A DNA stretch of 42,308 bases from an uncultured bacterium (GTDB lineage Bacteria > Gemmatimonadota > Gemmatimonadetes > Gemmatimonadales > Gemmatimonadaceae): NCBI GenBank assembly GCA_963978095.1, contig CAXBQP010000026.1, positions 1 to 42,308 on the forward strand, written 5' to 3'. Shown here in pieces: positions 1 to 35,290 of the stretch. Under the pieces are notes generated by a model, which had not been told where the DNA came from, made no database searches, and worked only from the letters and a program-made list of their open reading frames with translations. Position 1 is the first letter of the stretch; each line of letters starts with the position of its first letter. The position numbers and the translations under genes were made by a program.

Positions 1-3000
1 AGGAGCGGGAGGGCGAGACCGGAGAACGGAGACGGTGCGGGAGTCACGACCGGCGCCGGGGCGATCTTCTCGATCTCCGACTTGAGCGCGTCGGCCTCGG
101 CGCTCGGACTCTTGCTCAGCGCATCCACCAGCGCGCGCGCCTCGAGATACGCGGCGTGCGTCGCCTTGGCACCGCCGTACATTGAAGTCGTGAGCGCGGT
201 GAGCTGCGCGAGGCCGGCCGCCGAGGTCTTCACGCGCGGGTCGAGCTTGAGGGTGATCGGCTGCGTGTAGTGCTTGCCGTCCACGGTCAAGCGTACCGTA
301 TAAGTACCCGGCTGGGCCCACGGTGAACCCGGCGACGTGTAGGTGCGCCCGGGGACCGCCCCGCTCGATCCATCACCGCCCCCGCGTCCCCCGCCGCCGG
401 CACCGATGGGATCCATATGCAGATCCCAGTTGAAGCGATGCATCCCGCGCGTGGTGCCGAGCGTCAGCGACGGGGCCGGCCAATAGAGCGGGAGCCCGCA
501 ATCCGGCGCGTTCGGATTCGACTGGCAGATCTGGTTGTACTTGTCCGGATCCGTCGCCGGTTCGGCGCTCATCTTGCGGTCGTCGCTCGTGTAGGAGCGC
601 ACCACAGTGCCCGACTTGTCGAGGATCTCCAGTCGCACCGGGCCAGTCGCGTTCGACGCCAGGTAGTAATCGATGATCCCGCCCGGGGCGGGGTTCTCCC
701 CGGCCGGAACTTCCGGCGGCCACGGCGTGGGATCGTTCGTCGCGAAACGCACGCGCAACGCCGTCGACGGCGTGAACAGGAAGTGGCCGTTGGCCGCCTT
801 CAACGCGGCCATCTGCCGGAGCGGCGTCACGTTGTCGAGGATCCAGAAGCCGCGTCCGTGCGTCCCCGCCACGAGATCGCTGCACTGGCAGATGCTGTCG
901 TCCTTCACCTGGATGTCGCGCACGCTGATCGACGGCATGTCCACCTTGAGCGACTGCCAGTGATCGCCGTCGTCGAAGCTGACCCAGACCTGCAGGTCGG
1001 TCGCAGCGTACAGCAGTCCCTTGGTGCGCGGGTCTTCGCGGATCGAGTTCGCCGCGGCGCCGCCGGCGATCCCGGTGTTGATCTCCGTCCACGTCTTGCC
1101 GCCGTCGTGCGTGCGGTAGAAGTGAGGGTTCAGATCATCGAGACGGAGCGTGTTCGCGGCCGCGTAGGCCGTCTGCGTATCGAAGTGCCCGGCCTCGATG
1201 TTGAAGATACGCGTCCACGGCTTGATCGACGCCGGAGTGACGTTCTTCCACGTCCGGCCACCGTCACTCGTCGTGGAGATCGTGCCGTCGTCGGTGCCGG
1301 TCCAGATCACCCCAAGGCTCTTGCTCGAGAGCGACATCGCGGTGATCGCCCCGGCCGCGGCGGGCGTGATGTTCGCGGCGTATTTGCCGGCGGTCGCTGG
1401 CACCGCCCACGAGGCGCCGCGCGTGAGATCGCCGCTGATGCGCGTCCAGCTGTGCGCGCGGTCGGTGCTCTTCCACACCACGTTCGACGCATAAAACAGC
1501 GTGCTGTGATCGACCGGCGACCACTCGATCGGCATCGTGCGCACATTGCGTCCGAACTCGGTACCGCGCTGCGATGCGTCCGGGCCGACCGCAGAGGTCT
1601 GCCCGGTCCTGCGATTGTACAACGACACGCCGGTGCGCTGGCTGCCGTAGACCCAGTCCGGGTCCTTCGGGTCGGGCGCGGCCACGCCATACTCCTGGAT
1701 GTTCACCGGATGCCAATCGTGGAAGGTGATCTCACCATCCATCGAGCGACTGTCGACGCACGCCGAACCCGAGTCCTGCTGTCCGCCGCACACCCGATAC
1801 GGAAAGCTCATGTCGGTGCTCACATGGTACATCGCAGCCGTCGGCTGGTTGTACCAGTTGCTCCACGACTTGCCGCGATTTCCCGACACCACGCCCCCCT
1901 GATCGGCCACCACGATCAGAATGTTCGGATCGTTGGGGTTCACCCACGACTTCTGATAGTCGTCACCACCGGGCGCCCCGCGCACCGCGCTCCACGTCAG
2001 CCCCCCGTCCTCGGTGCGCCAGAACACGGTGCTCGCGCTGTAGATCACCTTGTCATTCTTGGGATCCACGGTGATGGTCGGCAGATCGCCACCGCCGATG
2101 CGCACGAGCGGACGATTGTCCGGCGCACGATTCGAACCACCGTCGGCGGCGGCCAGTTTCCAGTGTTCACCACCGTCGACGCTCTTGTAGAACCCCACCG
2201 ACCCGCCGCCGGCGCCACCACGGCCACCGCCGCCGGCCGCTCCGGCCACCATCGCGTACAACGTCCCCGGCGCACTCGGCGCGACCGCCAGGTTCGCCTC
2301 GATCACCGGGGGCAATCCCTCATTGATCGCCTTCCACGTCGTGCCGCCGTCGACCGACTTGAAGATTCCTTTTCCCGCGCCGCCGAAGCCCTGACCTTCG
2401 ATGAAACTCTGTTGCTGCTCCCAGAGCGCGGCGTACACGGTATTCGAGTTCGACGGATCGATGCGCACATCATTCGCGCTCGTGTACTCGTCCTGGTACA
2501 GCACTTTCTGGAACGTCTTGCCGCCGTCCGTCGAGCGGAAGATCCCGCGCTCCGTGTTCGGTCCGTACGGATGGCCGAGTGCCGCGACGAACAGGCGGTT
2601 CGGATCCTTGGGATCCACGTCGATGTTCGCGATCATCTGCGTATCGAACAGGCCGAGGTGCGTCCATGTCTTGCCGGCGTCGATGGACTTGTACACGCCG
2701 TCGCCGACGGCGAGATCGGGGCGGATGATCCCCGCGCCGGTACCCACGTAGATGATGTTCGGATTCGAGGGCGCCACCGCGATCGCACCGATCGAGCCCG
2801 TGGGTTGTCCGTCGAAAATCGGGACCCAGTTGGCACCGTAATCGGTCGAACGCCAAACGCCGCCGTTATCGAAGCCGATGTAGGCCACATTCGGTTGGCT
2901 CGGTACACCCGCGACGGCGCGCGCACGACCCGCACGCGTCGGGCCGATCTGACGCCAGTGGAGCGCAGCGGTCGGATCAACAGGCGTTTGCGCGGTCGCG

Positions 3001-15034: not shown

Positions 15035-17458
15035 TTACTTCGCCGGCCCACCCTTCAGCAGCCAGTAGTCGAACCACTGCCGGATCCGTCCGAGGCGGTC
15101 CACCAGCAGCCAAGGCTCGCCCGAGCGCGAGAGCTCGTGCGTCGAGCGCGGATAGCGCACGAACTCCGCCGGCACCCCCTGCGCCTTGAGTGCCATGTAC
15201 CAGAGGTCGGCGTTCCCCATCGGCGTGCGCCAGTCGTCCTCGCTCTGCACAAGCAGGGTGGGGGTCTTCACGTTCTTCACATGGCGGATCGGCGAGAGCG
15301 TGTCGTACATCGCCTGATTCTCCCACGGACGGCCGAAGAACTCGCCGTTGGTGAGACTCTGCACGTCCGACGCGCCCCACCAGTAGGTCCAGTCGGAGAT
15401 CATGCGGTCGGTCTCCGCGGCCTTGAATCGGGTGGTCTTGGTGGTGACCCACGCCGTCATGAAGCCACCGTACGAGCCACCGGTGACCCCCATCTTGGTG
15501 GAGTCCACGTCCGCCCGCGCCGCCGCGATGTCCACCGCCTTCATCAGGTCGATGTAGTCCTTGCCACCCCAATCACCACGGCTCGCGTTGGTGAACGCGC
15601 CGTTCGTGCCGCTCGACCCGCGCGGGTTCGTGTAGAGCACGAACACCCCGCCGCCGGCCAAGCTCTGGAACTCGTCGAACCACCCTTCGTTGTACTGCGA
15701 GTGTGGGCCGCCGTGGATGTACAGCACCACCGGATACTTCTTCCCCGGCTGGTAGCCGTACGGCTTCATCAGCCACCCTTCGATCTCCAAGTTGTCGACC
15801 GACTTGTACACGATCCGCTCGGCGTCGGAGAAGGCGACCTCCTTCTGCAGCGCATCATTGAAGCTCGTGAGCCGACGCTCGTTCTGCCCGTTGATGTCGG
15901 ACACGTAGTACTCCGGCAGGTGCGTCACATCGCTGGAGGTATAGACGAGCTTCGACTGCGCCTTGTCCATCACCAGATCGGCGATCACGCGACGTCCGCC
16001 GAGGATCGGGGTGACCTGTTTGGTGGCGGGGTCCACCTGCCAGAGTCCGGCGCTGCCGCCGGTCGTGGTGACCATGCGGATCTTGCCGTCCTTGAACCAC
16101 TCGATCTGTCCCGGTTCGTACTTCCAGCCGCCCAGGATGTCGACCGGCTTTCCACCGTCAACGGAGGCGAGGAGCAAGCGCGAGCTCGAGAACTGCCCGG
16201 GGCGTCCGACGAAGGCCAGCTGCTTGCTGTCGGCCGACCAGATGATGTTGGTCTCGCTACCGAAATAATCGATCTTCTTCGGCTTGCATGCGGCCGCATC
16301 CCCCGCTTCGCACGCGGCGACGGGAAGAATGTAGAGATCGGTGTCGTTGCGGTCGGCGTCGTCGCGCACATGGTTGGGCGGGAGCTTGGCCACGGAATCA
16401 CGCTCACGCGCCACGAGCGAATCGGAGCGGAGATTCTTGTCCGCGCTGAACACCACGTACTTGCCGTCGGGCGAGACACTCGGCGCGACGTGCGTGTAGT
16501 TCGTGCTGGTGATCGCCTTGCGGTCGCCCGAGCCGCGCTGGATGAACAGCTGCACCGGTGCGGTGCCGGCAGGCGGCAGGAAGGAGCCCCGTCCGCCACG
16601 TCCACCGCCGGCGGCCTGTGCCGCGGCGATCGGGTCGGCGGTCGCGCCGCGTCCCGTCGAGGGAATGAAGCCCGCGTCGTTGGAGCGGGTACGCTCGTCG
16701 ATGAAGTGCTTGCCATCGAAGCGGATCGGATTCACCGGCTTGGTGATCGAGCCCTGCGGCGGGCGTGCGAGCGGGAGCATCTTCGCGTAGGGATCCGCGT
16801 TCGGGATCGCCGTCGGATCAGCGGGGGCGTCGGTGCCCGGTGCGGCCGCGCCACCGGCGCGACCACGCCCACCACCGTTGCCGCCACGTCCGCCGCCATT
16901 CCCGCCACCGCCGTTGCCGGCGAAGATCGAGAAGCTCTTGTCCGCAGGCTGCGCAGCGGCGTTTCCGCCACCGAACCCGCCGCGTCCGCCCGCCGCACCA
17001 CCACGCCCAGCGGCACCACCAGCGGCACTTCCAGCAGCGCCCTCGACGGCAAAGGCTTCGCCCCCTTCATCCATGCGCACCGCCCATGCAGTGCCTCGGC
17101 TTCCCGGGCGCTGTGACGTGAAATAGAGCGTCTTGCCGTCATCCGACCAGCGCGGCGCGGCGCTCTCAAAGGCAGGCGCGGTCATGCGGCGCGCGGCGCC
17201 ACCGGCTACCGGCTGAATCCACACTTCGGTGTGGCGCGCATTCTTGTCCTCGAGCACCGTCGTGACAGTGAAGGCCAAGGTGTTGCCGTCGGGCGACAGA
17301 ACCCCGGCGCCAACGCGCTGGATCTTGTACCAGTCCTCAGGCGTGAAGGCGCGGCCGCCGGACTGCGCCGCGAGCGGCGCGAGCGGCGCGCCAGCAATCA
17401 GCAGCAGTGCGCCGACACGCAGGGCGACATCGTGGACGGAACGAGGGAAGTGGATCAC
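15035..17458 (-). CDS. S9 family (prolyl oligopeptidase/acylaminoacyl peptidase-like) serine peptidase, secreted
   Basis: IHGGPH, NPRGS, nucleophile GGSYGG, acid D in EDDWRTP, His in STHELSRSG; propeller repeats (SPDG); signal peptide. Confidence 0.92.
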   Translation of the reverse strand: MIHFPRSVHDVALRVGALLLIAGAPLAPLAAQSGGRAFTPEDWYKIQRVGAGVLSPDGNTLAFTVTTVLEDKNARHTEVWIQPVAGGAARRMTAPAFESAAPRWSDDGKTLYFTSQRPGSRGTAWAVRMDEGGEAFAVEGAAGSAAGGAAGRGGAAGGRGGFGGGNAAAQPADKSFSIFAGNGGGGNGGGRGGNGGGRGRAGGAAAPGTDAPADPTAIPNADPYAKMLPLARPPQGSITKPVNPIRFDGKHFIDERTRSNDAGFIPSTGRGATADPIAAAQAAGGGRGGRGSFLPPAGTAPVQLFIQRGSGDRKAITSTNYTHVAPSVSPDGKYVVFSADKNLRSDSLVARERDSVAKLPPNHVRDDADRNDTDLYILPVAACEAGDAAACKPKKIDYFGSETNIIWSADSKQLAFVGRPGQFSSSRLLLASVDGGKPVDILGGWKYEPGQIEWFKDGKIRMVTTTGGSAGLWQVDPATKQVTPILGGRRVIADLVMDKAQSKLVYTSSDVTHLPEYYVSDINGQNERRLTSFNDALQKEVAFSDAERIVYKSVDNLEIEGWLMKPYGYQPGKKYPVVLYIHGGPHSQYNEGWFDEFQSLAGGGVFVLYTNPRGSSGTNGAFTNASRGDWGGKDYIDLMKAVDIAAARADVDSTKMGVTGGSYGGFMTAWVTTKTTRFKAAETDRMISDWTYWWGASDVQSLTNGEFFGRPWENQAMYDTLSPIRHVKNVKTPTLLVQSEDDWRTPMGNADLWYMALKAQGVPAEFVRYPRSTHELSRSGEPWLLVDRLGRIRQWFDYWLLKGGPAK

Positions 17459-25118: not shown

Positions 25119-26456
25119 TCAGAGCCACGACGGCATCTCCTCCTGCTGCACGAGCGTCTCCACCGTCTCGGCGCGGCGAATGACCGCGTGGTGGCCGTCG
25201 AGCCCGACCATCACGACGTTGGGACGCGCGGTGATGAACTGCATCCATTGGGTCACGTTGTAGGCGCCGATCCGCCCGACCACCACCCGGTCTCCCGCCT
25301 TCAACGGCGGAAAGAGGATCCGGTCGCGCACCACGTCGATGTTCATGCAGAGTGGGCCGACGAACACCGTCGGCTCCGCGGTGCCGTGGACATCCTGCGC
25401 CGGGAACACGTCGTGGCGATACCACCACGCGGTCGGCAGCAGGTTCACGCCCGCGTCGATGACCACCGCGCGACGACCATCGGTGAGCCGCTTGTTGCCC
25501 ACGACGCTCGCCACCAGGATCCCGGCGTCGTCGACGATCGCGCGCCCCGTCTCGAGGACGATCCGCGGCCACTCCGCACCGCCGTACGCTTCGTCGAGTC
25601 CGGCCGCGATCTTCTCGACGTACTGCGAGAAACTCGGAGTCGCCTGCTCGCCGGGGAGATACTGCGATTGCAACGTGTTCCGCGACGCGAAGCCGCCCCC
25701 CATGTCGATCGTGTCGATGGACACATGCGATTCGTCGCGCAGCCGCGCGGCGAGCATCGCGATGCCCTTGGCCGCCAACCGATACGCATCGGCCTCTTGA
25801 ACGAAAGTGCCGACGTGGATGTGCAACGTGGTGATCTCCAGCACGCCACGTCGCACGATGCGCCGAGCGGCCTCCAGCGCCGAGCCGTTCTCCAGATTGA
25901 AGCCGAAGCGGTCCCACGACTGAGTGGGCAACTCGGTCATGTTCACCCGGATCCCGACCGTCGGACGGATCCCCAAGCGCTCGGCGACCTTCTCCGCGAG
26001 CGCGACCTCGTCCAGATGGTCCATCTGCACATGGGCGCCCGTGGTGAACGCCATCTCCAACTCGGCCTCGGTCTTGGCGGGGCCGTTGAACAGGATCTGA
26101 TGGCCCGGCATGCCGAGCCGCAGCGCCATCTGCATCTCGAGACCGCTGACCACCTCCGCCCACGCCCCCTCTTGATGCAGCACGCGGCAGACGGCCCCGA
26201 GATAGTTCGTCTTGTAGCTCCAACCGATCGTGAAGCGCGGGATGCGCGTCGCCATCTGGTCGCGGAGCTCGCGCATCCGCTCCCGGAGCATCCGCTCCGA
26301 GAAGAGGATCAACGGCGAGCCGTAGGCGGCGACGAGGTCGGCGATCGGTACCCCTTCGAACTTGTCGTACACCCGGATGGTGGGGCGCGAACCGAACTTG
26401 CTGATGCTCCCCACCTGATGGCGGACGATCACGGGACGTTCGTAACGCGGCTTCAT
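25119..26456 (-). CDS. Fold-type III PLP decarboxylase (diaminopimelate-decarboxylase-like, substrate unknown)
   Basis: SYKTN (PLP Lys), EVVSGLE, NGPAK, HIHVGT, IDMGGGF, ETGRAIV, GPLCMNID, GAY. Start ATG 26456 overlaps the ATP-grasp TGA. Confidence 0.88.
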   Translation of the reverse strand: MKPRYERPVIVRHQVGSISKFGSRPTIRVYDKFEGVPIADLVAAYGSPLILFSERMLRERMRELRDQMATRIPRFTIGWSYKTNYLGAVCRVLHQEGAWAEVVSGLEMQMALRLGMPGHQILFNGPAKTEAELEMAFTTGAHVQMDHLDEVALAEKVAERLGIRPTVGIRVNMTELPTQSWDRFGFNLENGSALEAARRIVRRGVLEITTLHIHVGTFVQEADAYRLAAKGIAMLAARLRDESHVSIDTIDMGGGFASRNTLQSQYLPGEQATPSFSQYVEKIAAGLDEAYGGAEWPRIVLETGRAIVDDAGILVASVVGNKRLTDGRRAVVIDAGVNLLPTAWWYRHDVFPAQDVHGTAEPTVFVGPLCMNIDVVRDRILFPPLKAGDRVVVGRIGAYNVTQWMQFITARPNVVMVGLDGHHAVIRRAETVETLVQQEEMPSWL

Positions 26457-27538: not shown

Positions 27539-27786
27539 TTCACCAGCCCATGTTCGCGAAGTCGCCCGACCAGCTCGTAGACATCGCGCGCGATGTCGTC
27601 CTCCGGCTCGGTGTCGAATTGGTCGTGCAGGGCGGCGATGACGGCCTCGGGCGTTGCCCCTTCCTTCAAGGCGCGCAATGCCGCGAGCGCCGTGGCATTG
27701 ACGTTGTACGTGTGGCCCGTCAGCGGGTCGAAGACAAAGCCGGCGTCGGAAATCGCCAGTTCACGCAGACGTTCGGTGTTCGACAT
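27535..27786 (-). CDS. Stand-alone PqqD-family / RiPP recognition element (RRE) protein
   Basis: 83 aa: beta strands (LAISDAGFVFDPLTGHTYNVN), then helices (ATALAALRAL; PEAVIAALHDQF; IARDVYELVGRLREHGLV). Alternative start ATG 27825. Confidence 0.82.
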   Translation of the reverse strand: MSNTERLRELAISDAGFVFDPLTGHTYNVNATALAALRALKEGATPEAVIAALHDQFDTEPEDDIARDVYELVGRLREHGLVK

Positions 27787-27851: not shown

Positions 27852-27914
27852 CTCCCTGACATGCCTATCCGCGCGTTGGGCGGGCCAACCCGAGATTGGG
27901 CGAGCCGGTTCGCG

Positions 27915-28547
27915 CTAGGTCCGGGTCGGCGTCAGGCGTCGATCGACCGCGACGAGCAGGGCGCTCATCACGACGATCGCGACGGTGATCAGGCCGGACA
28001 CTTTCAGGACGACCGGATATCCGAGCGTGTTCACATCGAGGAAATAGTACGGATACCATCCCTCGGCGGCCCCCCGGGCCAGCGAGTAGGCCAGATACCC
28101 CGCCGGGTATCCCAACCAGCTGACGATGTGGCTCACACGAAGCGTCCCCTTGGGGGCGAAGCGCCACCAAAAGAGCAGCACGAGGAGCGGTACGATGTCG
28201 TGCACGAGTTCATCGGCCGCGATGGAGAGCCCTTTCGGATGCCAGGTGCTGCGGAGCAGCGCCGAGTAGGCGACGCCGACGAACGCGATGTGGACCGTCG
28301 TGGCAGCCAATACCCCCGGGCGGCTCGCCCAGGCGGTCAGCGCGCCTTGGCGCGCACGCGCCAGGACGGTGAAGAGCACCGCCACCACGAGGTTGGTCGT
28401 GATCGTGAAGTAGCCGACCAACAGCCAGAGCTCATGGAGTGCCGGGGTCCCACGTGCCTGGGCGCGCATCAGGGCGGTCACCACCTGCAGGACCAGCCCG
28501 GCCCAGCAGCAAGCCGCAACGAAGGCGGCAGCGGATCGACGAGTCAT
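27915..28547 (-). CDS. Pr6Pr / FAR-17a-AIG1-like membrane protein
   Basis: YFTITTN, LVHDIVP, WLGYP..Y..Y...RG...GWYPYYFLDV; probable start ATG 28547. Confidence 0.8.
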   Translation of the reverse strand: MTRRSAAAFVAACCWAGLVLQVVTALMRAQARGTPALHELWLLVGYFTITTNLVVAVLFTVLARARQGALTAWASRPGVLAATTVHIAFVGVAYSALLRSTWHPKGLSIAADELVHDIVPLLVLLFWWRFAPKGTLRVSHIVSWLGYPAGYLAYSLARGAAEGWYPYYFLDVNTLGYPVVLKVSGLITVAIVVMSALLVAVDRRLTPTRT

Positions 28548-28747
28548 GATGGCGGGAGCGTTAGTTGTACGGAAATAGGAACGGAGGCGACGACGTTCGG
28601 ACGGCACGCGAACGGTGCCCTGTGGGCCGCGTGACGGCACAGGGCGCCATCCAGCGCCGGGGGAGCCAAAAGATGCGTGACGGTGCCCCGCACCGCCAGC
28701 GTCCCCGTCCCGGCGCACGGCTGGAAACCTTTCGCGCCGGTCGTCCG

Positions 28748-28793
28748 TTGAGTGCAAGTATCCACTTGCTTACACTGCAAGTGATCACTTGCA
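28748..28793 (+). promoter_or_regulatory. Sigma70-like promoter with two overlapping palindromes (putative TetR operators)
   Basis: TTGAGT 28748-53, N17, TACACT 28771-76; GCAAGT-atcc-ACTTGC 28754-69 fills the spacer; perfect TGCAAGTGATCACTTGCA 28776-93 covers the expected +1. Confidence 0.75.
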
Positions 28794-28904
28794 TCGGGCC
28801 TTCTGCGGGATCGGCGCGCAACGCGTCGGTCCGATGACGCCCGTCGGGTGCATCCCCGGCTTCCACTCGCTGCTCACCACCACCGCGCGCAGGCGCGTTC
28901 GACC

Positions 28905-30923
28905 ATGTCCGTTCCCGTTCCGACCCGCACCCATGTCCTGGCCGCCGCCGCCCGCGTGTACGGCGCGCTGGGATTCCGCGGCGCGACCACCCGCAAGATC
29001 GCGGAGGCCGCCGGCGTCAATGAAGTCACGCTCTTCCGGCAGTTCGGCAGCAAGAACGCCCTGCTGCTGGAGGCGCTGCGGGTCTCGGGGGCGGTGCATC
29101 CCGACGCCGTGCTGCCGACGGCCCCGGTGGATCCCCTGGCCGAGTTGACCGCCTGGAGTTCGCACATGCGGAAGTCGCTGTTGGCCATGCGTGGCATGAT
29201 CCGCAAGGCGATGGCGGAGTTCGAGGTCAATCCGGCGATGCCGAAATGCATGACGCACGGGGCCGAACAATCCCTGATGCAGTTGCGGGAGTACCTCACG
29301 CGTCTCGTCGATCAGGGCATGGTGCGCGCCGATGCGGATGTCGTCAGCGCGGCCTCGATGCTGATGAGCGCCATCTTTCACGACGCGCTCGGTCGCGACA
29401 TCATGCCGCACGCCTTCCCGCAGCCCGTGTCGGCGGCGCCGGCCAGCTACGCGCGCCTCACACTCCGCTCGATGGGCTATGAGCCCACGGCGAGCCGGCC
29501 GTCGAACGACCGCAAGCGCACGATCCAGCGCGTGCGACGCGCGCTGACGGTCGTGCTGCTCGTCGCGACCACGCCATGGGCGGGCGTCGCGCAGGGTACC
29601 GCCACGGCCCTCTCCCTCGCGGAGGCGCTGACCATGGGGCAAAAGGCGAGCCACGCCGTGCGTAGCGCCGAGGCCGGCGTGATGCGGGCCGGGGCGCAGC
29701 AACAGCAGGCGCGTGCGCAGTACTTGCCGCAGGTCAACGGAACGTTCGGCTACCAACGCCTGATGCAATCGCAGTTCTCGGCCATCACGTCCGGGAGCGG
29801 TTCCGGGTCCGGGTCGGGATCTGGGTCCGGTTCCGGGTCGGGCGGCGGCACCAGCAGCTTCGGCGACATCACCAAGATCTTCGCGTCGCCCAACACGGCG
29901 ACGCTCGGACTTTCGCTGACGCAGAATCTCTTCACCGCCGGCAAGTTGGAGTCCGCGACCAAGGGGGCGGCCGCCGCCCGAACGGCCGCCGACATCGGTC
30001 TCGACGCCGCGCGCGCGCAAGTCAATCTCGATGTCGCCCAGGCGTATTTCGACGCCGTCGCCGCCAAGGCGCTGGTCGACATCGCCGACAGCACCCTGGC
30101 CCAGGCCGAACGGACGCTGTCGCAGACCACGGTCAGCAAGCAGGTCGGGAGCGCGGCCGAGTTCGATCTGTTGCGGGCGCGGGTGGCGCGTGACAACCAG
30201 CGTCCGGCCCTGATCCAGGCGCGCGGCAACTACGACCTCACGATGATGCGTCTGCGTCAGTTGCTCGGGATCCCGCTCGACAGACAACTCGCGCTCACCA
30301 CGCCGATCCGGGACGAAGGCGTCGCGGCGGAGGCGCCCGGAGCGGATACCGCGGTGGCGCATCGCGCCACCGTGCGCCAAGCGGCCGCCAACGTGACCGC
30401 GCAGCAGTTCGCCCTGTCGGCGGCCGAGCGGAACCGCCTGCCCGCGGTGCAGGTTTCGAGTGCGTATCAGCGCTTTGCGTATCCCGCGGGCATCCTGCCG
30501 CTCGCGCTCAACCAGTACTACCCGAACTGGACCATCTCCCTCGGATTGTCGGTTCCGGTGTTCACCGGTGGCAAGCTCGATGCGGATCGCGCCATCGCCC
30601 AGGCCAACCTGATCGACGCGCAGCAATCCCTGGAGCAGTCCCGTGAACTCGCGGCGCTCGATGCGCGGACGGCGATCCTGCAGCTCGAGCAGGCGCAGGC
30701 CGCGTACGCGAGCAGCGTGGGGACGGACGAGCAGGCGCGCCGCGCGTACGGGATTGCCGAGGTGCGCTTCAACGAAGGGATCTCCACGCAGGTGGAACTG
30801 TTGCAGAGCCGCACGCAGTACGAACAGGCGCGGCTGACCCGCGTGCTCGCGGCGCGTGATCTGGAGGTCACCCGCTTGCGCGTGGCCTTCCTGAAGGACC
30901 TGCCGGTGACGGTGCGGCGCTAA
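28905..30923 (+). CDS. TetR-family regulator fused in frame to a TolC-family outer-membrane efflux protein
   Basis: HTH GFRGATTRKIAEAAGVNEVTLFRQFGSKNALL; no stop before an internal signal peptide (RRALTVVLLVATTPWAGVA-Q); then OEP repeats (AQYLPQV, VAQAYF, RNRLPAV, FNEGIST.VELL). Alternative start GTG 28848. Confidence 0.85.
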   Translation: MSVPVPTRTHVLAAAARVYGALGFRGATTRKIAEAAGVNEVTLFRQFGSKNALLLEALRVSGAVHPDAVLPTAPVDPLAELTAWSSHMRKSLLAMRGMIRKAMAEFEVNPAMPKCMTHGAEQSLMQLREYLTRLVDQGMVRADADVVSAASMLMSAIFHDALGRDIMPHAFPQPVSAAPASYARLTLRSMGYEPTASRPSNDRKRTIQRVRRALTVVLLVATTPWAGVAQGTATALSLAEALTMGQKASHAVRSAEAGVMRAGAQQQQARAQYLPQVNGTFGYQRLMQSQFSAITSGSGSGSGSGSGSGSGSGGGTSSFGDITKIFASPNTATLGLSLTQNLFTAGKLESATKGAAAARTAADIGLDAARAQVNLDVAQAYFDAVAAKALVDIADSTLAQAERTLSQTTVSKQVGSAAEFDLLRARVARDNQRPALIQARGNYDLTMMRLRQLLGIPLDRQLALTTPIRDEGVAAEAPGADTAVAHRATVRQAAANVTAQQFALSAAERNRLPAVQVSSAYQRFAYPAGILPLALNQYYPNWTISLGLSVPVFTGGKLDADRAIAQANLIDAQQSLEQSRELAALDARTAILQLEQAQAAYASSVGTDEQARRAYGIAEVRFNEGISTQVELLQSRTQYEQARLTRVLAARDLEVTRLRVAFLKDLPVTVRR

Positions 30924-30952
30924 CCATGACTTATTTCCAGAGGAACACCCTG

Positions 30953-32083
30953 ATGCAGTCCCGTTTGATCCGCGCCCTGCGGGCGCCCCTGCTCACGCTC
31001 GCGCTCGGCGCGACCGGCCTCCTGATGGCATGCGGAGCGAAGCCCGAGGTGGCGAGCACCGCGCTGCCCGAACAGATCATCGGACCGGAGCTCGTGGCGA
31101 TCGTGGCCACGACGACGATCACGAGCGGCCCGTCGATCTCCGGCTCGCTCGTGGCCGACAAAACGGCGGCCATCCGCGCCGAGGTCGGCGGACGGGTGAC
31201 CGCGGTCCTGGTGGAGCCGGGCGCGCACGTGAGCAAGGACGCGCCGCTCGCGCGGGTGGACGACAACGCGGTCCGCGAGGCGATGCTCGGTGCCAAGAGC
31301 GGCGTCACCCAGGCGCAACTGGGCGCCGATATCGCCAAGCGTGACCAGGATCGTGCGGAACGGCTCCTCGCCGCCGGTGCGGTCGCGGAAAACGCCGTGG
31401 AGAATGCCCGCCGCGGGAATCTGGCGGCGCAGGCGGCACTGGAAGATGCCAAGGCGCGGCTGGCGAATGCGCAGCGGAACCTCGACAATACGACGCTGAA
31501 GGCCCCGTACGACGGAATCGTGAGCGAGCGTCAGGTGAATGCCGGTGACATCGTCGCCCCCGGCGCGCCGATGTTCACGATCGTCGATCCCTCCACCATG
31601 CGGCTCGAAGGGTCCGTGCCGGCCGATCAACTCGGCGCGGTCCATCTCGGTGCGAGCGTCAAGTTCGGCGTGACCGGGTATCCCGGCACGTCGTTCGTCG
31701 GTACGATCAGCAACATCTATCCGAGCGCCGATCCGCAGACCAAGCAGGTGCGCCTGTATGCGCGCATTCCGAATGCCGGAAGTCTGGTCGCGGGGTTGTT
31801 CGCCAGTGGACGCGTCGCGAGCACCAGTCACTCGGCGCTCGCGGTACCCCTGAACGCCGTGGACCAGCGCGGGCTCAAGCCCTCGGTCCTGCGGCTCAAG
31901 GGAGGGAAAGCCGAGAAGGTCCAGATCACCTTGGGGGTCCGCGATGACGAGACCGAGAACGTCGAAGTCCTCGCCGGCCTCGCGGCGGGGGACACCGTGC
32001 TCGTCGGGCGCGCGCAGGGCATCACGATCGGCGCACCGGTGAAGGTCAGCGCGCCGTCCGACAAACCCGTCGCGAAGAACTAG
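30953..32083 (+). CDS. RND efflux periplasmic adaptor (MFP), lipoprotein
   Basis: Lipobox LMAC, IRAEVGGRV, LKAPYDGIV, GLAAGDTV. Start ATG 30953 follows AGAGGA; alternative ATG 30926. Confidence 0.9.
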   Translation: MQSRLIRALRAPLLTLALGATGLLMACGAKPEVASTALPEQIIGPELVAIVATTTITSGPSISGSLVADKTAAIRAEVGGRVTAVLVEPGAHVSKDAPLARVDDNAVREAMLGAKSGVTQAQLGADIAKRDQDRAERLLAAGAVAENAVENARRGNLAAQAALEDAKARLANAQRNLDNTTLKAPYDGIVSERQVNAGDIVAPGAPMFTIVDPSTMRLEGSVPADQLGAVHLGASVKFGVTGYPGTSFVGTISNIYPSADPQTKQVRLYARIPNAGSLVAGLFASGRVASTSHSALAVPLNAVDQRGLKPSVLRLKGGKAEKVQITLGVRDDETENVEVLAGLAAGDTVLVGRAQGITIGAPVKVSAPSDKPVAKN

Positions 32084-32092
32084 GAACCCACC

Positions 32093-35000
32093 ATGTTCAT
32101 TTCAGATTTCGCCATCAAGCGCCCCATCGTCACCGTCGTGTCGATGGTGGCCCTGGTCGTGTTCGGCGTGTTCTCCCTGGCCCAACTGCAGACGGACGAG
32201 TTCCCGGATGTCGCGCAGCCCATCATCAACGTGGCCATCCCGTATCCCGGGGCCGCGCCCGACGTCGTCGAGCGCGAGGTCCTGGATCGCGTCGAAGAAG
32301 CGATCAGCGGGATCAGCGGCGTGGACCGGATCAACGGCAGCGCGCAGGACGGATTCGCCAACATCACCGTGGCGTTCGTCTTCGAGAAGGACATTCAGCA
32401 AGCCAGCCAGGACATCCGCGACAAGATCAGCTCCGTGCGGGATCAACTCCCGCCGGAGATGAAGGAGCCGGTGCTCTCGCGGTTCGACCCGAGCGACCAG
32501 CCGATCGTGCAGCTCTCGCTGAACGCCACGACGCTCGACGCGCCGAGTCTCACGCGGATCGCGGATCCCGAGATCACCAAGGAACTGCGCGGCATCGCGG
32601 GGGTCGCCGAAGCGACCGTCGTGGGAGGGATCGAACGGGAACTCACGGTCGAGATCCGTCCGGACGCGATGCAGGCCGCCGGGATCAGCGTCGCGCAGCT
32701 CGTGGGCGCGCTCCAGCAGCAGAACCTCTCCGTGCCCGTCGGGAAGATCGACGGCACCTTGGACGAGCGCTCGATCCGCTTGCGCGGCAAGCTCGAGACG
32801 CCGGCCGACTTCATGAACCTCGTGGTCGACCAGCGTGGCGGCCGTTCGATCCGCCTCGGGGAGATCGCGACGGCCAAGGATGGCGTGGCCGAAGCCCGCT
32901 CCTCGGCGATCTATGGCACGAGCAGCACCGGCGCCCAGAGCGACGCCGTGGGGATCATGATCAAGAAGTCCAAGGGATACAGCACGTCGCAGGTCGCGGC
33001 CAAGGTGCTGGCCAAGGTCACCGCGTTGAAGACGACGCTCCCCGCCGGCGTGCACCTCGACGTGATCCAGAACGCCGGCGACCGCGTCGAACGGTCGGTC
33101 CAGAACGTGGAGGAGACGCTCGTGGAAGGCGCGGTCCTGACCGTCCTCGTGGTGTTCCTCTTCCTCAATTCGTGGCGCTCGACCGTCATCACCGGGCTCG
33201 CGTTGCCGGTGTCGGTCATGGCGAGCTTCATCGCCGTGTTCGCCTTCGGGTTCACGCTGAACACGATGTCGCTGCTCGGCCTGTCGTTGGCCATCGGCAT
33301 CCTGATCGACGACGCGATCGTGGTCCGCGAGAACATCGTGCGCCACATCGAAATGGGGAAGGATCATTTCCGCGCGTCGCACGAGGGAACCGACGAGATC
33401 GGGATGGCGGTTGCCGCCACCACGTTCTCGATCGTCGCGGTGTTCGTGCCGATCGGATTCATGTACGGCACGGCAGGGCAGTGGTTCAAGCCCTTCGCGC
33501 TGACGATCGCGATGGCCGTGTTGGTGTCGCTCTTCGTGTCGTTCTCCCTCGATCCGATGCTCTCCGCCTACTGGCCCGATCCGGAGACGGAGGCCGGCGA
33601 GCACAAGAGCTGGATCTCTCACAAGCTGGAGCGGTTCAACGCGTGGTTCGACCGGATGAGCGAGAAGTACACGCGCGTGATCCGCTGGGCGCTCCGGCAC
33701 CGGTGGAGCATGGTCACCCTCGCCGCCCTCTCGTTCGTGGCCGCCATCTGGCTGCAGGTGAAGTTCGGTGGCTTCGGCTTCGTGCCGGACAGCGATCGCA
33801 GTGAGTTGACGATGCAGGTGCAGACGCCGCCGGGGTCCAATCTGGACTACACCCGCATGAAGACCATGGAGGTCGCGCGTCTCGCGCTCGGCCACAAGGA
33901 TCTCGTGAACTACACCTTCGCCACCGTGGGCGGCAGCAGCGCGGGAATGCAGCCCGGGGCGGCCATCGGCGCCGTGGACCTGGGCACCGTGTATGTCCGC
34001 ATGAATCCGAAAGCGACGCGCACGGTGTCCCAGCAGGAGTTCGGCGGCATCTTGCGCGATCAGATCGCCAAGATCGGCGGCGCCAAGGCGTACATCTTCA
34101 CCGGCGGGATGGGGGGCGCCCGCAAGCAGATCCAGGTGGAGATGCGCGGCAAGGATGCCCGCACGCTCAACGCCCTCGCGGACAGCGCGCTGAAGCTCGT
34201 CGCGAAGGTGCCGAACGTCGTCGACCTCGCGCTGAGCACCAAGGGACAGAAGCCCGAACTCGAGATCAACCTGAATCGCCAACTCGCCGGCTCGATGGGC
34301 GTGACGGTGGGGCAGGTGGCGCAGGCGCTGCGGCCCGCGTTCGCGGGCGTCGACGCCGGTGATTGGGTGGATCCCGCCGGCGAGAACCGCAAGGTGCGCG
34401 TGCGTCTCGCCAGCGAGGCACGGACCAAGCAGTCGGATATCCAGCGCCTGCCGATCGTGGCTTCAGGACTGGGCGCCGGGCGCGGGAGCGTGATGCCGTT
34501 GGGGCAGATCGCCAGCGTCACGCCGGGACTCGGACCGGCCCTGATCTCGCATTTGGATCGCGAAAATGTGGTCGTCGTCGAGGCCAACGTGCAGGGCCGG
34601 TCGATCGGCGAGGTGAACCAGGACATCAGCAAGGCGCTCGCCGGCCTCTCCCTGCCGGCCGGATATCGCATCACCGCCGGCGGCGAGGTGAAGGATCAGC
34701 AGGAGGTCTTCGGCCGGATCTTCGCGGCGCTCGGCGTCGCGGTGCTGCTGATGTACCTGATCCTCGTCATGCAGTTCGGCAGCTTCCTCGAGCCGATCGC
34801 GATCATGGTGTCCCTGCCGCTCTCGCTGATCGGCGTGGTGCTCGCACTCATCCTCACCAAGGGCACGCTGAACATCATGAGCATGATCGGCGTGATCCTG
34901 TTGATGGGGATCGTGGCCAAGAACGCCATTCTCCTGATCGACTTCGCCAAGTGGGGGCAGGAGAACGGCCTGGAGCGCGAAGATGCGATCGTCGAGGCTG

Positions 35001-35290
35001 GTCGCGTGCGCCTGCGTCCGATCATGATGACGACGCTCGCGCTCGTGGCGGGGATGGTGCCGGTCGCCCTCGGCAACGGTGAGGGCGCCGACTTCCGCGC
35101 GCCGCTGGGTCGCGCGATCATCGGCGGCGTGATCACCTCCACCGTGCTGACATTGCTCGTGATCCCGACGATCTACGAGATCCTCGACGACTGGCGCATC
35201 AAGTTGACCGGGATGTTCGACATTCCGGTGCGTCCCAGCACCGAGGAGTACATGGTGCCCAAGGAAGCGCGGAAGAAGTCGACGCACTGA
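32093..35290 (+). CDS. RND efflux permease (AcrB/AcrD/AcrF family)
   Basis: MFISDFAIKRP, GILIDDAIVVRENI, VAKNAILLID, RLRPIMMTT; 1065 aa. Confidence 0.95.
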   Translation: MFISDFAIKRPIVTVVSMVALVVFGVFSLAQLQTDEFPDVAQPIINVAIPYPGAAPDVVEREVLDRVEEAISGISGVDRINGSAQDGFANITVAFVFEKDIQQASQDIRDKISSVRDQLPPEMKEPVLSRFDPSDQPIVQLSLNATTLDAPSLTRIADPEITKELRGIAGVAEATVVGGIERELTVEIRPDAMQAAGISVAQLVGALQQQNLSVPVGKIDGTLDERSIRLRGKLETPADFMNLVVDQRGGRSIRLGEIATAKDGVAEARSSAIYGTSSTGAQSDAVGIMIKKSKGYSTSQVAAKVLAKVTALKTTLPAGVHLDVIQNAGDRVERSVQNVEETLVEGAVLTVLVVFLFLNSWRSTVITGLALPVSVMASFIAVFAFGFTLNTMSLLGLSLAIGILIDDAIVVRENIVRHIEMGKDHFRASHEGTDEIGMAVAATTFSIVAVFVPIGFMYGTAGQWFKPFALTIAMAVLVSLFVSFSLDPMLSAYWPDPETEAGEHKSWISHKLERFNAWFDRMSEKYTRVIRWALRHRWSMVTLAALSFVAAIWLQVKFGGFGFVPDSDRSELTMQVQTPPGSNLDYTRMKTMEVARLALGHKDLVNYTFATVGGSSAGMQPGAAIGAVDLGTVYVRMNPKATRTVSQQEFGGILRDQIAKIGGAKAYIFTGGMGGARKQIQVEMRGKDARTLNALADSALKLVAKVPNVVDLALSTKGQKPELEINLNRQLAGSMGVTVGQVAQALRPAFAGVDAGDWVDPAGENRKVRVRLASEARTKQSDIQRLPIVASGLGAGRGSVMPLGQIASVTPGLGPALISHLDRENVVVVEANVQGRSIGEVNQDISKALAGLSLPAGYRITAGGEVKDQQEVFGRIFAALGVAVLLMYLILVMQFGSFLEPIAIMVSLPLSLIGVVLALILTKGTLNIMSMIGVILLMGIVAKNAILLIDFAKWGQENGLEREDAIVEAGRVRLRPIMMTTLALVAGMVPVALGNGEGADFRAPLGRAIIGGVITSTVLTLLVIPTIYEILDDWRIKLTGMFDIPVRPSTEEYMVPKEARKKSTH

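Follow-up and report, generated by a model that had tools for sequence, protein, structure and literature searches.

The DNA analysed here (the window) comprises positions 1 to 42,308 of contig CAXBQP010000026.1 (assembly GCA_963978095.1) from a member of the Gemmatimonadaceae. Its minus strand carries a tightly packed operon of six genes in the order PqqD, ATP-grasp ligase, decarboxylase, a urea-transporter-like domain fused to an M23 peptidase (UT-M23), a protein with tetratricopeptide repeats (TPR) and a beta-rich part, and a small TPR protein (Table 1). Both junctions among the PqqD, ATP-grasp and decarboxylase genes are overlaps of four bases, the ATG of the decarboxylase (26456-26454) overlapping the TGA of the ATP-grasp gene (26455-26453). 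The reading frame of PqqD is open up to a GTG at 27852, and the ATG at 27786 is where the family profile begins to align. PqqD-type recognition elements for peptides that are made by ribosomes and modified after translation (RiPPs), abbreviated RREs, serve as class-independent beacons for peptide natural-product clusters, and one that has no adjoining precursor gene is usually read as the sign of a missed precursor. We deal here with a ligand that may lie within the operon itself, namely the N-terminal tail of the decarboxylase. The segment 26391-26456 (minus strand) encodes MKPRYERPVIVRHQVGSISKFG, which is M1 to G22 of this 445 amino acid (aa) enzyme and which an earlier note on this DNA had likened to a RiPP leader.

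Table 1. Features of the operon in the window.
Feature	Position	Strand	Basis or remark
PqqD-type recognition element (RRE), about 83 aa	27535..27786	-	Pfam PqqD 1.9e-11; two genes upstream of the decarboxylase
ATP-grasp ligase, 361 aa	26453..27538	-	Pfam ATPgrasp_Ter and ATP-grasp_3; start overlaps the PqqD stop
Fold-III pyridoxal 5'-phosphate (PLP) decarboxylase (Orn/DAP/Arg type), 445 aa	25119..26456	-	Pfam PF02784 2.5e-32, PF00278 6.1e-12
Decarboxylase N-terminal tail, residues 1-33	26358..26456	-	Translation, AF2 pLDDT, starts of profile and PDB alignments
Leader-like motif Y5-E-R-P8-V-I10	26427..26444	-	Family form [Y/F/W]xxPx[I/L/V/M]
Second conserved block S19-K20-F21-G22	26391..26402	-	Family consensus N-K-F-G; may hold an acceptor lysine or be a further docking element
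Urea-transporter-like membrane domain fused to M23 peptidase, 699 aa	22997..25096	-	Pfam UT 9.1e-40, Peptidase_M23 1e-15
Secreted TPR-plus-beta-rich protein, 406 aa	21780..23000	-	Start overlaps the UT-M23 stop; BLAST relatives in 6/80 genome loci
Small secreted TPR protein, 210 aa	21110..21742	-	Relatives in 60/80 genome loci

The body of the decarboxylase is that of a fold-type III enzyme: it has both Pfam domains and the lysine of a W-S-Y-K-T-N-Y stretch, K82, which we take to be the PLP-binding residue and which is invariant in the 102 aligned sequences. The protein scores below the NCBIfam cut-offs of LysA (TIGR01048; 203.1 for 297.9 bits) and of FslC (206.5 for 500 bits). Its closest solved chain is 7kh2, an N-citrylornithine decarboxylase (4.6e-57), and a separate LysA-like paralogue encoded in the same genome has 31% identity and aligns from residue 41. 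Alignments to known families begin well inside the protein, at residue 62 for the Pfam catalytic domain, 34 for the lysA profile, 29 for the FslC profile and 28 for 7kh2. Judged from these starting points, residues 1-33 are an add-on to the catalytic fold, which bears out the statement of the earlier note that a leader-like extension precedes the catalytic domain. Among the matches listed from a search of 5.8 billion proteins, the non-truncated homologues share the start point of the decarboxylase, and the 120 closest relatives listed (63-99% identity) have for the most part a length of 445-451 aa and a start MKP(R/K)YERP(V/I)I.

Conservation of the tail was followed in a larger set of loci. 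A scan of genomes, one per species, gave at least 590 related stretches, of which 80 were kept, and a metagenome scan added another 80 to make the 160 related loci used below; 125 of them supplied paired sequences. The pattern [Y/F/W]xxPx[I/L/V/M] is present in every readable tail of the 160 loci, which come from many phyla. Position 5 is Tyr in 95 of the 125 pairs, Phe in 18 and Trp in 12, while Pro8 and an Ile, Leu, Val or Met at position 10 occur in all 125. The second block is conserved to a similar degree (Lys20 in 124 pairs, Gly22 in 115, Phe21 in 103 and an Asn at position 19 in 99), with Lys20 replaced in some outlying relatives. In an alignment of 102 family members reaching down to 38% identity Pro8 is found in all sequences, the mean column identity being 55%; by this measure the tail is conserved more strictly than the body of the enzyme. 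A motif of three positions could arise by chance in one protein; its conservation could not.

The tail marks a subset of the decarboxylases. All of the 13 best-scoring among 116 full-length representatives of 50%-identity clusters carry the motif, which is found in only 6 of the 103 lower-ranked ones, 75 of these 103 having 25 residues or fewer before the catalytic domain. Most tail-bearing proteins fall in one clade of a tree built without the tail columns; some tail-less relatives (P0141, P0142, P0144, P0149 and P0173) are nested in the family. One cluster representative of 871 aa (P0133) looks like a fusion of ATP-grasp and decarboxylase in which the motif is kept in the linker as Y-V-R-P-S-I and Lys20 is replaced by Arg; it is a single sequence and may be a frameshift artefact. 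Myxococcota frames of 813-1022 aa were also considered as ligase-decarboxylase fusions and rejected as artefacts of high-GC DNA, the ATP-grasp lying in another frame in 8 of 8 loci.

An AlphaFold2 (AF2) model of the decarboxylase, calculated from the 102-sequence alignment, has a mean predicted local distance difference test score (pLDDT) of 92. This value is 62, 55 and 69 for residues 1-10, 11-20 and 21-30, respectively, and at least 85 in every block after residue 30, with no secondary structure before residue 32. A tail that is conserved yet disordered is typical of a docking motif. A reading of the tail as nothing more than the first strand of the decarboxylase's sheet domain was rejected because the model shows it as low-confidence coil up to residue 31 and the profiles begin at 28-34.

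The PqqD protein resembles receptors of lasso peptide leaders more than it does the PqqD of pyrroloquinoline quinone (PQQ) synthesis. It passes Pfam PF05402 (44.6 bits, cut-off 23.4) and reaches 17.5 bits on TIGR03859, for which the cut-off is 46. When its family profile is compared with the PDB, the best matches are TbiB1 (5v1u, 5e-12) and TfuB1 (6jx3, 9.3e-11), followed by 9x90 and 9x8z, whereas chains of PQQ-synthesis PqqD match far more weakly (3g2b and 5sxy at E = 0.01 and 0.076). Most discrete lasso receptors are reported to recognise [Y/W]xxPx[L/V/I/A/F/Y] (PMC13381572), a consensus that the tail motif fits on a coil segment of pLDDT 55-69; many receptor groups, FusE, McjB, PqqD and StsC among them, are described as binding a W/Y/LxxP/L/I sequence (PMC12710340). 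In the receptor LppB, a hydrogen bond is reported between D70 and the Tyr of the leader, with the kink at the Pro fixed by N33 and F74 packing against this Pro; D70A weakens complex formation, and N33A nearly abolishes it (PMC13381572). A gap-free alignment to 9x8z places these three residues at positions 30 (N33), 67 (D70) and 71 (F74) of our family profile, where Asn is found in 123, Asp in 100 and Phe in 114 of the 125 PqqD sequences. The PqqD of the window keeps the first two as Asn52 and Asp90 and has Leu94 where most relatives have Phe.

One pair of residues on the two proteins varies together where contact would be expected. Mutual information (MI) was scanned, with average product correction (APC), over the 125 triples of decarboxylase, PqqD and ATP-grasp aligned to their family profiles (effective number of sequences, Neff, 105). 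The first of the 38,250 pairs of columns (450 in the decarboxylase by 85 in PqqD) joins Tyr5 of the tail to the leader-contact Asp of PqqD helix alpha-3 (z = 8.3), and this pair corresponds to the hydrogen bond seen in solved receptor-leader complexes. Further pairs, from 62 of 66 additional loci of the sampled genomes, raised the set to 182 non-identical decarboxylase/PqqD pairs, Pro8 being invariant in all of them. Tyr tails (n = 145) go with Asp in 140 cases, the others being 3 His, 1 Asn and 1 Glu; Phe tails (n = 21) go with Asp in none, the partner residue being Tyr in 13, Ser in 6, Gly in 1 and His in 1; and Trp tails (n = 14) go with Asp in 11, with 1 Glu, 1 Asn and 1 Gly. The pattern makes chemical sense, a tail that loses its hydroxyl going with a receptor that loses the acceptor. 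Phe at position 5 arose essentially once, in a Bacteroidota clade, and once more in a sister-clade locus, and two or three reversions to Tyr within the Phe clade coincide with a regained Asp (L151, L134) or with Asn (L102). In this Bacteroidota clade (for instance L024, L038, L069, L078, L098 and L124), in which Tyr or Ser replaces the alpha-3 Asp, the second block also shifts from M-N-K-F-G towards M-P-S-K-F-G, and the whole interface looks to have changed in a co-ordinated manner.

The complex of PqqD residues 23-105 with tail residues 1-36 was predicted with a separate alignment for each partner. Three runs gave scores of 0.61, 0.55 and 0.56 (median 0.56), the best of three controls reaching 0.02, and the runs agree in at least 85% of contacts, with a partner pLDDT of at least 55. 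The result was graded as weak support. In the calibration set, 116 of 157 solved complexes and 2 of 215 mismatched pairs pass the mark used; with scores of 0.60 or below only 18 of those 157 complexes pass it, as do both of the passing mismatches. Structures of comparable receptor-leader complexes exist, so that the pass may reflect resemblance to them and not binding by the copy in the window.

The genes of the cassette travel together. PqqD and ATP-grasp genes lie upstream on the same strand in 124 of the 125 loci whose upstream sequence extends to 1700 nt or more, and a UT-M23 gene lies downstream in 114 of the 116 loci with at least 2500 nt on that side; the intergenic gaps are mostly shorter than 30 nt. 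Titled genome records that carry the cassette come from Gemmatimonadales, Myxococcota, Bacteroidota, Ignavibacteria, Cloacimonadota, Nitrospirota, Persephonella, Melainabacteria, Gammaproteobacteria and others. The kind of protein with TPR and a beta-rich part also trails the cassette in other loci, and the TPR family of the small protein makes up an open reading frame (ORF) cluster seen in 66 loci, its usual place being some 3.5 kb downstream of where the decarboxylase starts. Such co-occurrence shows that the cassette genes work together; taken alone it is no link between the tail and PqqD, since the cassette is inherited as one block. All tail-bearing relatives with visible context have the whole cassette, and the tail-less ones come from a context-free sequence library.

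Two groups of loci depart from this layout. The only one of the 125 without PqqD and ATP-grasp upstream is the metagenome locus L116, where the tail-bearing decarboxylase follows a RecG-like gene and a gene for an 872-aa TPR protein, with small TPR and barrel genes convergent to it. PqqD, ATP-grasp and UT-M23 are absent from its visible 7.5 kb, and the contig ends 1.3 kb further on; being a rearranged locus near a contig end, it is not a clear counter-example. In the sister clade, L087, L089, L093, L138 and L165 have about 0.7-2.4 kb of extra sequence between ATP-grasp and decarboxylase; L087-L090 and L093 match the UT-M23 protein far less well. The tails of L087-L090 keep [Y/F]xxPxI and have an altered N-K-F-G block; the N-terminus of L093 is not readable.

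A separate precursor was sought in several ways. In the 160 loci the only conserved ORFs of at least 60 aa found were the known genes and shadows antisense to them, none of 18-70 aa was found within 3 kb of the cassette, and nothing recurrent was found upstream of PqqD in related loci. Among the clusters of 18-70-aa ORFs the two largest, from 12 and 11 loci, mostly run antisense to the TPR gene downstream. No second motif-bearing frame was evident in the same loci: of the 171 matches to a regular expression for the motif, 145 mark the start of a decarboxylase and the remaining 26 appear to be random. In each of five genomes checked, a tail profile gave exactly one match, the fused one. Of 401 Bacteroidota genomes, 31 had matches to this profile, 32 in total and every one within a frame of 449-520 aa; of 351 Myxococcota genomes, 39 had 39 matches, each within a frame of at least 380 aa. 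None of these 71 matches in the 752 genomes of the two phyla is a free-standing tail peptide, and other phyla may differ. A word search for shorter proteins bearing the tail returned one candidate of 164 aa with 97% identity over the tail. As far as these searches of 160 loci reach, the statement that no small precursor ORF lies in or next to the operon holds.

The same genome has a lasso-type cluster on another contig (C23, locus L086, about positions 1-1971, minus strand), in which a PqqD-like B1 gene (profile E = 1.2e-6) is followed by genes for a B2-like protease and an asparagine-synthetase-like cyclase. Leaders of the YxxPxL type thus probably exist in the cell, which would have two leader receptors that may read similar motifs. 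This bears on the view that PqqD serves a conventional small precursor, encoded elsewhere or too small or divergent to be recognised, the tail motif then competing with it or being irrelevant. The small-ORF search, with its span of 3 kb on each side and its 18-70 aa range, leaves room for such a gene. We nevertheless hold it to be quite improbable, as no conserved small ORF was found in the 160 loci, no second tail-like match in five whole genomes and only long frames among the Bacteroidota and Myxococcota matches, and as the lasso-type cluster has its own B1 protein.

Taken together, the observations lead us to propose, with a probability of about 0.7, that the PqqD of the operon binds the leader-like tail of the decarboxylase as lasso B1 proteins bind leaders, a proposal drawn from alignments and structure models. 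The earlier note's suggestion that the tail is the ligand of the orphan RRE is supported by several computational lines, namely the motif on a disordered tail, the lasso-B1-type PqqD, the Tyr-Asp covariation, the complex prediction with its weak pass and the lack of a precursor in the loci searched. What PqqD holds would then probably be an entire enzyme and not a small peptide. In the contact envisaged, the aromatic residue 5 would sit in the first hydrophobic pocket, where the hydroxyl of a Tyr would hydrogen-bond the alpha-3 Asp (Asp90); Pro8 would make a kink held by Asn52; Ile10 would fill the second pocket; and the residues that follow Ile10 would add a strand to the PqqD sheet.

Several observations weigh against this proposal. 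The complex score is a weak pass and may reflect memory of solved B1-leader complexes. The runner-up pair of the MI scan, which looks like phylogenetic noise, has a value of 0.325 against 0.348 for the top pair, and the tail columns as a group are not enriched for MI with PqqD after entropy matching (p = 0.75). The covariation rests on few events, with 4 parsimony changes between Phe and non-Phe and 2-4 independent contrasts; the sign test gave a median p of 0.25-0.5 with no contrast in the opposite direction, the test being underpowered because there are too few independent changes. The PqqD of the window has Leu at the pocket position occupied by Phe in 114 of 125 relatives. The near-perfect co-occurrence says little, no cassette lacking PqqD or lacking the tail having been seen that could serve as a natural control. 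The low pLDDT of the tail could mean that it folds only in a homodimer, the AF2 model being that of a monomer. Finally, RRE binding does not account for Lys20 (124/125) and Gly22 being as conserved as the motif.

The last two points also favour a reading in which the tail is an intrinsic part of the decarboxylase, such as an active-site lid, a dimer arm or a regulatory segment, its likeness to a leader being coincidental and PqqD binding some other ligand. The N-K-F-G block belongs to no known recognition motif and equals the leader-like motif in conservation, contacts made only in a dimer cannot appear in a monomer model, and the independent-contrast test of covariation is not significant. 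The closest solved relative and all family profiles nonetheless do without the segment, the strongest inter-protein covariation points to the leader-contact Asp of PqqD and not to the body of the enzyme, and the variants of the motif stay exactly inside the Y/W/F...P...I/L/V range accepted by leader receptors. We consider this reading improbable.

If PqqD binds the tail, there are two ways in which the binding might be used. In the one we prefer, docking, PqqD would tether the decarboxylase to the ATP-grasp ligase by contacting both, and the amide made by the ligase would pass straight to the decarboxylase, whose nearest solved relative uses a conjugated amino acid. The ligase is the most likely anchor because the PqqD gene is translationally coupled to that of the ATP-grasp. 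Given binding, we favour docking over covalent loading by roughly two to one. The nearly invariant Lys20 block fits either assembly of a complex or modification of the decarboxylase N-terminus, the two uses that the earlier note had offered.

In the second way the decarboxylase would be its own carrier. PqqD would present the tail to the ATP-grasp, Lys20 would be acylated with an amino acid or a dicarboxylate, the decarboxylase would act on the group tethered to itself and the M23 domain would release the product. Carrier-bound chemistry of this kind has precedents: in BtrI/BtrJ/BtrK an ATP-grasp enzyme and a fold-III decarboxylase work on a tethered substrate, and carrier-bound steps are also found in LysW/LysX and scaffold-peptide pathways. 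Lys20, present in 124 of 125 pairs, lies 10 residues after the end of the motif, where a RiPP core would begin; 7kh2, the closest solved decarboxylase, acts on a conjugated and not on a free amino acid; and the cassette includes an M23 domain of the amide-cutting type. Tail columns are also modestly enriched for covariation with the ATP-grasp (p = 0.005), the pair of tail I18 with one grasp column ranking third, while the MI values of these grasp-tail pairs are of the same size as those of obvious noise pairs. An attempt to place the tail on the ligase from this covariation was abandoned as too noisy.

Lys20 is, however, replaced in outliers that otherwise look intact (N-P-L-G in L131, N-P-Q-G in L127, N-T-F in P0128 and the Arg of P0133). 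The AF2 model of the ATP-grasp (mean pLDDT 95.4) finds its nearest folds in 2pn1, carbamoyl-phosphate synthetase, biotin carboxylase, PurD/PurK and the L-amino-acid ligase RizA, which are small-molecule ligases and carboxylases and not of the RimK/LysX or graspetide type. Fold neighbours this generic do not decide between docking and a carrier. Compared with graspetides, the tail has an invariant Lys and no invariant acidic partner. On balance, loading of the tail is a possibility we regard as unlikely. Its fullest version, in which PqqD clamps the motif and holds the N-K-F-G loop to the ATP-grasp, an amino acid is placed on Lys20, the active site of the decarboxylase acts on the tethered group and M23 clips off the amine at the mouth of the channel, is slightly more doubtful still. 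If true, it would be a scaffold-peptide pathway whose scaffold is fused to one of its enzymes, present in hundreds of species of many phyla.

Other genes of the window lie around the operon. Directly upstream of it, at 27915-28757 (minus strand), is a gene for a membrane protein of the Pr6Pr family (NCBIfam NF038065, 1.4e-34); it has no counterpart in the 80 related genome loci and is probably not part of the operon unit. Three consecutive efflux-system-like genes follow on the plus strand (28848-35290). As read from their translations only, they encode a 691-aa protein with a TetR-like N-terminus and an outer-membrane-factor-like part, a 385-aa membrane-fusion-like protein and a 1065-aa pump of the resistance-nodulation-division (RND) type. 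On the other side, 15035-17458 (minus strand) codes for an 807-aa prolyl-oligopeptidase or S9-like peptidase, again judged from its translation, with a long low-complexity insert rich in Gly, Ala and Arg near the N-terminus.

No description of the PqqD/ATP-grasp/decarboxylase cassette was found among the papers listed in literature searches, although supplementary tables of genome-mining studies could list this PqqD group without comment. Nor were reports found on PqqD together with a urea transporter, M23 and ATP-grasp, or together with diaminopimelate decarboxylase and ATP-grasp. Among the papers listed on orphan or non-RiPP RREs and leader-like ligands none deals with such an enzyme tail, and the accessible part of the RRE-Finder paper makes no mention of one. 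The proposed recognition would be a widespread variant of leader binding, the likely ligand in the operon being the enzyme's own tail. If this is true, the PqqD fold and its Tyr/Pro/aliphatic code can act as a general device for protein-protein docking outside peptide maturation, genome mining must allow for ligands that are enzyme tails, and a short portable tag for assembling enzymes would become available. It would also give a first concrete and testable handle on an unstudied six-gene operon that recurs in Gemmatimonadota, Myxococcota, Bacteroidota, Ignavibacteria, Cloacimonadota, Nitrospirota, Aquificota-like and other lineages.

Among known systems, the pairs of lasso B1 proteins with their leaders (TbiB1, 5v1u/5v1v; TfuB1/FusB1, 6jx3; PbaB1, 9x90) and LppB-LppA (9x8z) supply the best PDB matches to the operon PqqD. 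They share with it the ligand motif [Y/W]xxPx[aliphatic] and the contact residues Asn, Asp and Phe, and the Tyr-Asp covariation in the operon is what their solved hydrogen bond would predict. The ligand of the operon is, in contrast, the N-terminus of a 445-aa enzyme and not a separate peptide of 35-200 aa. Neither a B2 protease nor a cyclase or kinase is encoded in the cassette, there is no sign of the leader being cut off, and in one clade Phe takes the first motif position with loss of the Asp. The system would work like a lasso B1-leader pair but departs from it in the separate processed precursor, the B2 protease and the cyclase: the motif opens an enzyme, and the adjoining genes encode ATP-grasp, decarboxylase, UT-M23 and TPR proteins in the place of a B2 protease and a C macrolactam synthetase.

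PqqD-PqqA (3g2b, 5sxy) belongs to the same Pfam family, PF05402, and likewise has a chaperone that stands alone and offers the segment it binds to a partner enzyme; the operon differs in having neither a radical-SAM partner nor a PqqA-like peptide. FslC/FigC of the rhizoferrin pathway (7kh2) is the closest solved relative of the catalytic body of the decarboxylase and has as its substrate an amino acid previously linked to an acid by a ligase, the logic expected in this operon. It aligns only from residue 28, without the leader-like tail, and its partner ligase is not known to be an ATP-grasp. The Btr and LysW/LysX systems have a small protein and an ATP-grasp ligase side by side, in Btr along with a fold-III PLP decarboxylase, and handle a tethered intermediate. 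The small protein of the operon has, instead, the PqqD fold and is neither an acyl carrier nor a LysW-type zinc ribbon with an acidic C-terminus. It is the only small protein of the cassette, matching no other Pfam family at E <= 0.01, and any carrier in this operon would be the enzyme's own tail.

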